A DNA stretch of 63,632 nt, filler included, from Octopus bimaculoides (Eukaryota): NCBI RefSeq assembly GCF_001194135.2. It is 7 parts of 7 records of this genome, joined end to end, with 100 filler letters (N's around TTAATTAATTAA, not from the genome) between each part and the next. Parts side by side here need not be neighbours in the genome. Positions count along the whole stretch, not along the records: positions 1 to 7,949 come from NC_069001.1; positions 8,050 to 16,300 come from NC_069007.1; positions 16,401 to 19,717 come from NC_068995.1; positions 19,818 to 22,756 come from NC_068990.1; positions 22,857 to 53,598 come from NC_068986.1; positions 53,699 to 58,458 come from NC_068985.1; 1 more part is not named here. One strand, written 5' to 3'. Below are positions 7,928 to 56,577 of the stretch, one piece after another. A program made the translations under genes and the position numbers. Each line of letters starts with the position of its first letter. Position 1 is the first letter of the stretch. Under the pieces are notes generated by a model that did no database searches, was not told the DNA's origin, and was given only the letters and a program-made list of their open reading frames with translations.

Positions 7928-7949
7928 AAAGGCGACTCGAGTTTCAGGG
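7928..7949 (-). ncRNA. 3' half of a hammerhead motif, 5' half lost in the gap
   Basis: Minus strand ccct-GAAA-CTCGAG-TC-gcc: palindromic stem III ACTCGAGT and a GUC triplet, ending exactly at the N spacer. Confidence 0.35.
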
Positions 7950-8049
7950 NNNNNNNNNNNNNNNNNNNNNNNNNNNNNNNNNNNNNNNNNNNNTTAATTA
8001 ATTAANNNNNNNNNNNNNNNNNNNNNNNNNNNNNNNNNNNNNNNNNNNN
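7950..8049. other. Artificial 100-bp scaffold spacer (N44-TTAATTAATTAA-N44); identical at 16301-16400, 19718-19817, 22757-22856, 53599-53698, 58459-58558
   Basis: Six identical constructs. TTAATTAATTAA puts a stop codon in all six frames. Confidence 0.95.
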
Positions 8050-8459
8050 TGTGTGTGTGTGTGTGTGTGTGTGTGTGTGTGTGTTTGTCCCGACCCACCG
8101 CTTGGCAGCTGGTGTTGGTGTGTTTATGTTCCTGTAACTTATCGGTTCGGCAAGAGATAAATAGAATAAGTACCAGCTCTCATAAATAATTAATTAAATA
8201 AATGAATAAATAAATAAACGTACCGGGGTCGATTCATTAAACTAAAAACTCTTCAAGGCGGTGTCCCAGCATGACCGCAGTCTCATGACAGAAACAGGTA
8301 GAAGAGAAGAGACAAAAAGGTAAAAAATACAGCATCAAATGGCTACGTGGGTCCATCCAAGTAAAATATAGAAATCACAGCAATTTTTTCCCCGTTCAAA
8401 CACAGACATTTTAGGATAGCTGTGTCTATGCTTTCTTTTATTTTGGTGTGATTGATGGT

Positions 8460-8720
8460 TGGAGGTGGGGTTCTGGTCGGATGTTGGGGCATGCGCCATT
8501 GCAGTGGTCGTTGCGTTCACCATTTGTCGCTATATTCCCAGTATACTCCCCGGTGACCCGTCGACCCTCCAACAGGGTCCCGATCATTTCCCATCTCCGC
8601 GAGATTGCTCCTCATCTGCCGTGACCACGTGGGATGTGGTCGACCAACACGAGCCGTCAACCCAACGGTACCCTCAGGGAAGAGAATACGGGATGGGTGA
8701 CAAACTAGGAACTCGGATGT
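8460..8720 (-). mobile_element. RTE-like LINE 3' fragment
   Basis: Minus frame HPSRILFPEG...RVGRPHPTWSRQMRSNLAEMGNDR resembles the RTE C-terminal RPRGRP..TWLRQ motif. Confidence 0.5.
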
Positions 8721-8874
8721 TGTTGTTGTTGTTGTTGTTGTTGGTGGTGGTGGTGCTGCTGCTGCTGTTGGTGGTGTTGATGTAATTGCAGTTGTTGTCG
8801 ATGTTGTTACTGTTGCTGTTGTTGTTACCTGTGTTCTTGTTTAACCTTCAGACCCAATTTTTATCCATGAAGAT

Positions 8875-52596: not shown

Positions 52597-52826
52597 CCTT
52601 ATTTCTTTATTGCCCACAAGGAGCTAAACATAGAGGGGGCAAACAAGGACAGACAAACAGATTAAGTCGATTATATCAACTCCAGTGCGTAACTGGTACT
52701 TATTTAATCGACCCTGAAAGGACGAAAGGCAAAGTCAACCTCGGCAGAATTTGAACTCAGAACGTAGCGGCAGACAAAATATCGCTAAGCATTTGACCTG
52801 GCGTGCTAACGTTTCTGCCAGCTCGT
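52597..52826 (-). mobile_element. SINE family A
   Basis: Reverse complement of the family A consensus. Confidence 0.8.
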
Positions 52827-53771
52827 GGCCTTTCAGTTTCTGGTTAGCATATCCATTCACAAGGCTCAGCGCTATGGTAGAAGACACTTGCTCAAGGTGT
52901 CATGCAGTAGGACTGAACTTGGAACCATGCAGTTGGAAAGCAAACTCCTTACCTCAGAGCCATGCCTGTGTCTATATGTGAGAGAGAGAAAGAGAGAGAG
53001 TGTGTATTTATGTGTACCCTAATCTAGATAACATGTAATGTCTGTAAATGAGCATCATCATCATCATATAAGCAAGGTTGTTTATTTCCAGCCTTCTGTG
53101 AAAATATGTTTAGATACAAGGAAACTACTACCTTGCTTGGAAACAAATGTTGGAGACCGGAAGAGCATCCAGTCAAGCAATCATGGAAAAGTGGACATCA
53201 AATGAGGATGATGATGATGACATTTAATATCTGTATATAGTACTTACATATGTACATGCATGAGCATTTACACACATACAGCATCATCATCATTGTTTAA
53301 CGTCTGCTTTCCATGCTGGCATAGGTCGGACGGTTTGACTGAGGACTGGCAAGCCAGTAGGCAGGGTATGGTGGCGAACCCTGTTGTACTCTTTCACCAC
53401 AACTTTCTCTCACTCTTACTTACAGTTTCTGTACCTGTATTTCAAAGGGCCAGCCTTGTCACACTGTCACCCTGTCTGCCACACTCTCTCTTGCTCTCTC
53501 TCTCTCATCTTTTGCTTGTTTCAGTCATTAGACTGCAGCCATGTTGAGGAACTGCCTTGAATTTTTAGTCAAATGAATCAATCCCAGCACGTCATTTTNN
53601 NNNNNNNNNNNNNNNNNNNNNNNNNNNNNNNNNNNNNNNNNNTTAATTAATTAANNNNNNNNNNNNNNNNNNNNNNNNNNNNNNNNNNNNNNNNNNNNTA
53701 TATATATATATATATCATATCATACTCACACATATATACAAAACGTACTCTTTGGTTTTCTTTTTTCTCTT

Positions 53772-54067
53772 TCAAACATTTAACTTCAGAGAAATTTTTT
53801 TTTTATGAAGTGTAGTTCCATTGCCTTTCGGTATTGTGGATCGTCCCGTATACATTTGTTAAAGGGAAAGATTTTGAACTTTCCGTCTCCGTATATTTCC
53901 AGATGTTTACTCAATTGAATCATTCTTAGTTCTTCTTGCCGGATATGTTGCCTTTGAATTCTTGCACGTTGCCGCAGGGAGTTGTTCGTTTCGCCGATGT
54001 AATTTTATTTACAGTTTTGGCCGATAACGCAGTATATGAGATTTTGTGTTTTACAGTTCATATCTGT
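53772..54067 (-). mobile_element. Penelope-like GIY-YIG endonuclease C-terminus
   Basis: MNCKTQNLIYCVIGQNCK*NYIGETNNSLRQRARIQRQHIRQEELRMIQLSKHLEIYGDGKFKIFPF...RKAMELHFIKK..KLNV*, with LIY...YIG motif. Confidence 0.75.
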
Positions 54068-56577
54068 ATATACATGTTCGTGTGTGTATATATATATACA
54101 CGCACATATTTGTGTGTGTGTATATATATATATATATACACACACAAGTGTATTTATTTGTGTGTATGTATATATATATATATGTACACACATTCATGGA
54201 TATTTATATTTAGATATGTGTCTATGTATGTATATATGTGTGCGTGCTCGCGCATGTGCATATATATGGTTGTACAAATACACGCGCACACTGCAAACGC
54301 GGTTTAGACATAAACGTGTTGAGGCTAGCACAAACTTGTTTGTAATTGCTGTCAAGTTCCAATATCTGGTGCTGCAACTTTAATTCATATCAGCAATTCT
54401 CTATCATCTACCTCTTCAAACTATTACCCATTTCCTTTTAACTGACACAATATTTTCAACGCCCTTTTGCTTAAATTCAATGGACACCTCTCTATTTTGA
54501 ATGAGATATGAATCAGGCGACAGTAATTTAGTTCTAGGTATTAGTCTGGCACAGTTGTCAACCCACATTTCTACCCTACTATAAGCGTATACAATAAGCA
54601 CAAGTGGTACTTATATTCGGTTATGCATATTTATTTATTCACATTTCAAAATCTGTTATTATAGTTGATTTTATACACACATATTCATACAAACATATGT
54701 ATGTGTGTCATATATATATATATATATATATACACACACATTTGTGATATATATCTATAATACATTAAAAGCGAAGTTCAATCTTGCTTGCTTGCTAACT
54801 TGCAATGTTACACAGCCAAACAGGCGCATAATGGGAAAGTACTTTAAAAGTAAAATTCCCCTGAAATGGAATACGAACGGAATAAAACAGGTTTCGCGTA
54901 AACCAGACCAGTAGTTATTCGGTATTTGGGGGAATAAATACCCCATAAACCGGACCAGTAGTTATTCGGGGTTTGGGGGGTATAAATACCCAAAACAATG
55001 CATACTGGGAAAATACTTCGGAAATAGTTTCTTCCATTTTAGGGTGAAGTTAACTATTCTATTATGATAGGCAAAATATCTTTAAGTGAAAATGTCTTTA
55101 AAAAAAAGTAAATATTTCGTAAAAGACCCGTTCGTAACTTCGGTGTGAAATAGTATAAGTACAAGACTTAGAAATAATACGTCCTGGGGTCGATTTGTTC
55201 CACTAAAGGCGGTGGTCTAGCATGGCCGCAGTCAAATGACAAACAAATAAAACAACAAAATAATAAAAGAATAGAATAGTGATATATGATTTGAATATGT
55301 ATGTGTATGTGCGCGCGCGACGTGGTCTTTCAGTTTCTGCCAACCATTACCAATTGAAAGGATTTAGTCAAACCGATCGTATAGTGGCCCAAGGCTAAAA
55401 AGCAAATTTGTTACCACACAGTCACGCCTGTGATTATATATATAGAAAAACTATAAACATGTATGCATTCGCATGTATATATATATATATATGTGTGTGT
55501 GTATATAAACACATGTCTGTGCATATATATATATAAATGTGTGTGTGTGTGTGTATATATATATATATATATATATATACATACATACATACATACACAG
55601 CGCACGCGCGAATTTCAAGTAATTTTACGTCTAATGACGTAAGATATTAGATACATACAGCTGATGTTCAGGTTGATTTCCTACCTAAACACCTTGAACT
55701 GCAGCTGGGAGTTTCAGGGTTGTTTTGGCTACTTAGAATTAGGATTAGTCACAGGCAGTATTTCAATCAAACTAGCACCTGCAGGTATCAACAGAAAAAA
55801 AAAAAGACTGACAACTCGTCAATTGTGACTTTTATATATTTAAAGTTACTGAAGATTTGAACACAAGAGCTCAATAAAAGATTGGTTGGGGAGTGTTCAT
55901 ATACGCTGGTATTCTCCCAGAACAGTTATAAACTAAGTCCATTGTTCATAAGTCCTTTATAGCACAGCACCTTATTTACCACTCTTATCTTAAGCTTCTT
56001 ACCATATACTGCCCTCTATGGCTAGTCTGGCTAACTGATGATTCTAAGCGCTCACCCCTTCACCATTATAGTCTCGGGCCGACCAAAGCCTTTCTCTCTT
56101 AACCAACTCCTTCCTTAACTCATATAGGCACCGGACACTGCTTTCTACATATCTCTAGACCTTTTATGTATCTACCTCTCGCCCTCTACGTTAGCTTCTA
56201 TCGACCTTACACTTATAACCAAAACTATTCTGCCTTTCTTCCTTTATACTCACTTACATTGCTTAGTCATTGCGAGACTAATAACCTGGTGAAGAGCATA
56301 TGTTTCAGAACGCAGTGTTAGCCGAGTGTAGAGCAGCAATAAGAACTGAAAATGACAAAGGAATAAATGATCATCTTGTAAACTTCAGCAGCTTAGCAGA
56401 AACAGCTGTAAGCCAATGAAGTGCACAAGATAATCAAGTATTTCTTTGCCATCTCTCTTAGCTATCGCACTAATATATATATATATATGTGTATATATAT
56501 ATATATATATATATATATATATATATATATATATATATATATATATATATATATATATATATGGAGAGAGAGAGAGA

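Follow-up and report, generated by a model that had tools for sequence, protein, structure and literature searches.

Three type I hammerhead ribozyme motifs with a palindromic stem III are present in a 63,632-nucleotide stretch of the Octopus bimaculoides genome (RefSeq assembly GCF_001194135.2), hereafter called the window, which consists of seven parts of seven records joined by filler. One of these motifs is intact (H1, positions 17263-17318, + strand) and two are mutated (H2, 21413-21458, +; H3, 44506-44547, -). With a probability of about 0.8, they are largely decayed terminal pieces of Penelope-like retroelements whose active parents would have cut their RNA as a dimer of two hammerheads. 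Their flanks are unrelated, as an original prediction made from the letters of the window had stated. None of the motifs lies in any of the 227 repeat pairs that self-BLAST finds in the window, and comparisons among their flanks behave as shuffles do, except that 2 of 30 beat all 30 shuffles (one a TG microsatellite and one marginal). Most likely, H1, H2, and H3 come from several unrelated Penelope-like families.

The motifs exceed what is expected by chance. Our descriptor followed the published consensus, with a stem I of at least four pairs, the core, an optional extra base, a stem II of at least four pairs, GAAA, an even palindrome, and UH. A strict search of the window returned one complete hammerhead, H1, and the other motifs were located by listing all 34 CUGANGA sites together with the four palindromes named in the original prediction. 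Four sites depart from the descriptor by at most two deviations, namely H1 (0), H3 (1), H2 (2), and a doubtful motif called H6 (2). Local dinucleotide shuffles contain a mean of 0.015 such sites and reached four in 0 of 400 trials, an excess that is somewhat favorable because the descriptor was fixed after some motifs had already been seen. A site with zero or one deviation likewise appeared in 0 of 400 shuffles. Dinucleotide-shuffled sequence was one of the yardsticks that the original prediction had proposed for its own rejection, and the observed rate lies above it. Its assignment to the minimal type I hammerhead agrees feature by feature with the consensus given for Penelope-like elements in the accessible text of PMC4209133.

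H1 contains a stem I of 4 bp, a bulge, and 6 bp, followed by the core CUGAUGA (17273-17279), a stem II of 5 bp (17280-17295), GAA, the 8-base palindrome AATCGATT as stem III (17299-17306), and an A, with cleavage predicted after 17307. Its 10.1-11.1 pair is present, and the extra base before G10.1 is absent. H2 is a mutated minimal hammerhead with an A at core position G5 (21420) and a changed palindrome base at 21451. The palindrome had originally been read as AC[G>A]T, which proves right, in that G makes up 73-81% of the depth at 21451 in the repeat family described below; the core defect is a second one that had gone unremarked. H2 also has an extra A at 21425, between A9 and G10.1, as well as a G10.1-C11.1 pair and a predicted cut after 21453. 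This extra base, the G10.1-C11.1 pair, a short helix I, and a palindromic helix III are the published hallmarks of such motifs, and H2 has all of them. H3, with the 6-base palindrome AGTACT, deviates only in its 10.1-11.1 pair, which is A-C, and occupies a short stretch between TG/CA tracts.

The original prediction had counted four clear cases, with one more possible, that share the order stem I-CUGANGA-stem II-GAAA-stem III-UH. Three cases stand (H1, H2, and H3, one of them intact), with this order found in H1 and H3 as they are and in H2 in the majority letters of its family. It is absent or not visible in two further candidates, H4 and H5, of which H4 is only half a motif and H5 is at chance level. 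The palindromic stem III with little or no loop holds for H1 (8 bases), H3 (6 bases), and H2 (4 bases, family majority), but H4 offers no clear case.

H2 belongs to a high-copy short repeat, one copy of which follows an (AAT)n(AAG)n tract and extends over 21364-21520 (+) according to DNA contig depth. On positions 21364-21963 we mapped four of the 24 runs listed as matches: the DNA contig sets X1 (same organism label) and X16 (another organism) and the raw RNA runs X21 and X23. All letter counts given here concern the H2 family only. X1 supplied 23,182 contig records and X16 supplied 14,075, with depth concentrated on 21364-21523, where the summed depth runs to millions versus 40.3 on the unique flank. 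The ratio of 44,000-290,000 is not a copy number and conveys only an order of magnitude, but it suggests that the copies number in the tens of thousands. The family is thus a dispersed repeat, ~150-180 bases long, that is very numerous in both species. As judged by the depth majority, most copies carry an intact core and palindrome, since G accounts for 91.5, 97.0, 88.7, and 87.9% of the depth at 21420 and for 76.8, 81.0, 73.1, and 74.6% at 21451 in the four runs.

Upstream loose ends of this repeat consist of (AAT/AAC)n, so that a microsatellite marks the 5′ boundary that the copies have in common. Downstream loose ends are mixed, with a continuation of ~25-30 bases common to part of the copies. 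Inversions occur in 4 of the 15 joints listed (39 in all), and depth increases towards the 3′ end. Penelope insertions are described in the accessible parts of PMC8557442 as having microsatellite targets, inverted copies, and optional tails of 30-40 bases. The 5′ microsatellite, the partly common 3′ continuation, the inverted joints, and the rising depth make the H2 family resemble such insertions. CpG changes in the ribozyme, which affect C11.1, G12, and the C of the palindrome, amount to 7-12% in DNA and 20-29% in RNA; at a CpG outside it, they amount to 14-19% in DNA and 17-24% in RNA. Because these rates are about equal, inserted H2 copies decay about neutrally, as would be expected of fossils.

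Sequence of the H2 family is also present in RNA, matching 6,997 of 12.9 million reads in one run and 5,322 of 11.5 million in the other (462-543 per million, or ~0.05%). Reads fall alike in both directions, with the strandedness of the libraries not established, and 94% of the mapped reads continue into unlike sequence. Neither the starts nor the ends of molecules accumulate at any position in X21 or X23. At 21453, the loose ends of 344 and 238 RNA reads resemble products of cleavage, but they carry the family's upstream ribozyme sequence and are clipped alignments. This pattern fits passive transcription inside other RNAs and gives no sign of cutting, although the test is a weak one.

Some observations concern the immediate surroundings of H2. 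The letters before the repeat (21256-21363) are AACTG-like and then (AAT)n, resembling a 3′ end at 16085-16119, and H2 may have inserted in, or may carry, an (AAT)n tail of that sort. H2 as the 5′ end of a Dong/R4 element was rejected, given that most copies end within ~30 bases of 21520, in mixed flanks. Just downstream, at 21624-21703, there is a second, shorter repeat with raised depth in the DNA and RNA runs.

The hammerhead fold of an H1 monomer is predicted at -10.1 kcal/mol, which is 6.9 above the best monomer fold of -17.0, an inactive one. For two copies, the best fold is at -36.5 kcal/mol versus 2 x -17.0; here an 8-base pairing joins the palindromes, and the 5′ strand of stem I in each copy pairs with the 3′ strand in the other. 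The best predicted fold for H1 is thus the double hammerhead, in which two copies could pair via their palindromes, each cutting the other. The accessible text of PMC4209133 reports that a single minimal motif does not cut, that dimers and trimers cut weakly, and that release of element RNA from tandem precursors has been proposed; dimer cleavage by hammerheads is reviewed in PMC6765202. From this literature, we infer that the active parents of H1, H2, and H3 probably relied on RNA cut by a two-ribozyme dimer. In a tandem element, two terminal repeats would supply the two copies and free a unit-length RNA for reverse transcription. Truncated insertions would leave single ends that then decay. 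The motifs of the window are most likely scattered, largely decayed terminal pieces of this sort from several unrelated families, and single genomic copies would be mostly inactive.

Coding remains of Penelope-like elements are present in the window. Six-frame motif searches, protein searches, and profiles built from 154 and 122 relatives revealed three separate fragments, the number that the original prediction had given; the reversed window gave no profile match below E 0.5. A frameshifted reverse transcriptase (RT) fragment covering the catalytic region lies at 19184-19413 (+; profile E 4e-14, tblastn E 8e-12). A GIY-YIG endonuclease fragment with an internal stop codon lies at 53798-54076 (-; profile E 5e-37, Pfam GIY-YIG E 0.002) and is 72% identical to P0004. 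Judging from a CxxC linker in its relatives, it is probably of the Neptune/Nematis type, and a gap follows within ~100 bases. The third fragment, an RT at 63267-63631 (+; E 2e-30) that runs off the window, resembles the Hydra clade, and its motifs agree with those aligned for Hydra elements in the supplement of PMC8557442.

The proposed link between the motifs and Penelope-like elements draws on the literature, and several results weigh against it. A physical link, which the original prediction had proposed to test, was not found in the window: with the two profile sets, no Penelope coding match appears upstream of H1, H2, H3, or H5, and Pfam and both profile sets give no coding signal in the region before H1 (16760-17270). 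The nearest Penelope fragment, the RT at 19184, is separated from both H1 and H2 by ~2 kb that include other repeats and gaps, and no parent element was seen for any motif family. The minimal consensus has an extra base that is missing from H1. Among the copies of the H2 family, no compensatory change occurs in the 40 of 85 variant rows listed, and CpG loss in the DNA contigs is slightly lower inside the ribozyme than outside. In addition, read ends in the two RNA runs do not pile up at the H2 cut site, which reads cross, as far as this weak test can tell.

In a different account, a short RNA would allow the H2 family, or H1, to spread by itself as a non-autonomous element akin to retrozymes, and the copies seen here would be its monomers. 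The H2 unit of ~150-180 bases has a very high depth, a common 5′ microsatellite boundary, and no coding flank in any of its loose ends (which show 30 letters), and monomeric retrozymes from Penelope ends have been described in vertebrates (bioRxiv 10.64898/2026.07.22.740005, accessible text). However, the tandem arrangement suggested originally did not materialize, in that the window contains no tandem copy of any motif and no head-to-tail joint is found among the 15 of 39 listed, though arrays may exist elsewhere in the genome. The family's RNA reads also run on into unlike sequence without discrete ends, although cDNA (complementary DNA) libraries may miss small circles. On balance, we consider this account unlikely. 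It overlaps with an origin as Penelope-like terminal pieces because Penelope ends are considered the source of such elements. Along these lines, it is tempting to speculate that a Penelope end gave rise to the H2 family as a self-standing, non-coding hammerhead element, ~150-180 bases long and associated with (AAT/AAC)n tracts, and that its copies numbered in the tens of thousands before the two cephalopod species diverged. If true, it would be among the largest animal ribozyme families and would supply host RNAs with latent cut sites that act only in dimers.

It is much harder to credit that the host keeps the motifs as working ribozymes in its own transcripts. The fully intact H1 and the abundance of H2-family sequence in both RNA runs would suit such a role, but H2 and H3 carry defects in the core or in a closing pair, CpG decay is about neutral, and reads are equal in both directions and cross the cut site. 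Least probable of all is that the motifs are chance matches in repeat-rich, AT-rich sequence. Chance does describe H5, which belongs to a class found at expectation, and may describe H4 and H6. For H1, H2, and H3, however, it is refuted by the shuffles, none of which contains a site as good as H1 or H3, and by the majority letters of the H2 family, which are intact at precisely the two positions mutated in H2.

Full-text searches of the literature turned up no account of these particular families; Repbase, Dfam, and Lunse et al. (2017), who reportedly observed dimer cleavage and may list cephalopod motifs, lay outside that search. What is new is apparently a set of uncatalogued families, whereas the kind of motif is already known throughout animals, with molluscs and one octopus element among the published cases. 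Minimal hammerheads occur in the pseudo-LTRs (long terminal repeats) of metazoan Penelope-like elements (Cervera and De la Pena 2014, PMC4209133), where the alignment includes the molluscs Lottia and Crassostrea and the searchable supplement holds no cephalopod. Our motifs share with them the type I order, the short helix I, the palindromic helix III, and, in H2, the extra base before G10.1. As in the window, the families in the accessible text of that study are many and unrelated per genome, mostly as single dispersed copies. In contrast, H1 has a longer palindrome and no extra base (missing in some published rows too), and H3 lacks the 10.1-11.1 pair. Also unlike the elements described there, the motifs have no coding-element link in the window, and the H2 family is probably far above the 2,000-9,000 motifs per genome reported.

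A 3′ hammerhead is also in print for a cephalopod element, Hydra-1_Obim of O. bimaculoides (Craig et al. 2021, PMC8557442, File S2). H1, with its 4-pair stem III and no extra base, resembles the Hydra-clade hammerheads listed there, as does the 4-pair stem III of H4, but theirs is closed by one base whereas a loop base is entirely absent from H1 and H4. A Hydra-like RT fragment also lies in the window. The motif of Hydra-1_Obim differs in sequence, and short words from H1 to H4 are absent from the supplement. The H2 family also resembles the non-LTR retrozymes of animals (Cervera and De la Pena 2020, PMC7229834; Li et al. 2026, bioRxiv 10.64898/2026.07.22.740005) in being short and non-coding, with a type I hammerhead, a very high copy number, and common monomers, and those retrozymes derive from Penelope ends. 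However, they are defined by tandem units and circular RNA, neither of which is seen here in the window, the listed joints, or ordinary RNA runs. The main texts of both studies leave cephalopods unmentioned. Elsewhere, 190 families of Penelope-like elements were found to make up 6.83% of the Octopus vulgaris genome, with ribozymes unmentioned in the accessible text (PMC13282606), giant squid has 235 matches to Rfam hammerhead 1 (PMC6962438), and Penelope is among the ancient repeats of coleoids (PMC8967140, accessible text).

These motifs could serve as a sequence tag for classing short unknown repeats of these genomes as Penelope-derived, and Rfam misses them. No Rfam hammerhead family was found around H1 or H2 at E values up to 10, and no hammerhead is among the 150 of 231 matches listed for the whole window. 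Metagenome contigs scanned for exact patterns of H2 and of H1 yielded 0 loci in either case. A run search with 16760-17340, the region around H1, gave no RNA run among the matches listed, and the shares of 0.05-0.07 for three other organisms do not count as evidence. Owing to its size and its ~0.05% share of RNA reads, the H2 family offers a convenient system for asking whether Penelope hammerheads cut in vivo. No new ribozyme or mechanism is indicated, and the size of the H2 family is the one point above the ordinary.

The remaining candidates are weaker. H4 (7928-7949, -) is the 3′ half of a possible hammerhead, unconfirmed, of which four stem II bases, GAA, ACTCGAGT, C, and the 3′ stem I strand can be seen; the 100-base gap at 7950-8049 would hold its CUGANGA and the 5′ stem I strand. 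Half motifs composed of GAAA, an 8- or 10-base palindrome, and H are over-represented across the window (13 versus 3.6 expected from 200 shuffles), possibly reflecting AT-rich repeats or decayed motifs. H4 cannot be called because such halves are common and a core lies upstream in only 1 of the 13, which is H1. H5 (56279-56323, +) is a very decayed, unconfirmed look-alike with four deviations, a class with 14 sites observed versus 11.5 +/- 3.4 in shuffles, and was rejected as not above chance. H6 (57435-57478, -) is a possible but doubtful decayed hammerhead with G-U-rich stems; it has GAUA instead of GAAA and relies on many G-U pairs, and in fold prediction it does not form a hammerhead. Two suspected decayed endonuclease ends were also dropped, one upstream of H5 (55650-55795) with nothing in Pfam or both profile sets and one at 2810-2935 that reached only E 0.14-0.5 in the same searches.

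Other repeats also occur in the window. Fragments at 2082-2900 (+) and 15749-16095 (+) with RT motifs and a 3′ end followed by (AAT)n are presumably of a Dong/R4-type, non-LTR-like kind. Those at 11412-11786, 58604-59682, and 60600-61700 we take, by eye, to be decayed Tc1/mariner-like transposase fragments; Pfam gave no match for 60300-61400. Six 100-base gaps (7950-8049, 16301-16400, 19718-19817, 22757-22856, 53599-53698, and 58459-58558) hold the same 12-base insert TTAATTAATTAA between two runs of 44 N, which we assume to be an assembly gap marker rather than biology. Self-BLAST further reveals imperfect long inverted repeats resembling miniature inverted-repeat transposable elements (MITEs) at 17745-18043, 27611-28260, and 63085-63245. 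One short interspersed repeat occurs in many copies of 73-91% identity (23497-26400, 39489-40210, 47220-47451, 52600-52833, and 56607-56824), with tandem copies at 39489-40157 and 25784-26402.

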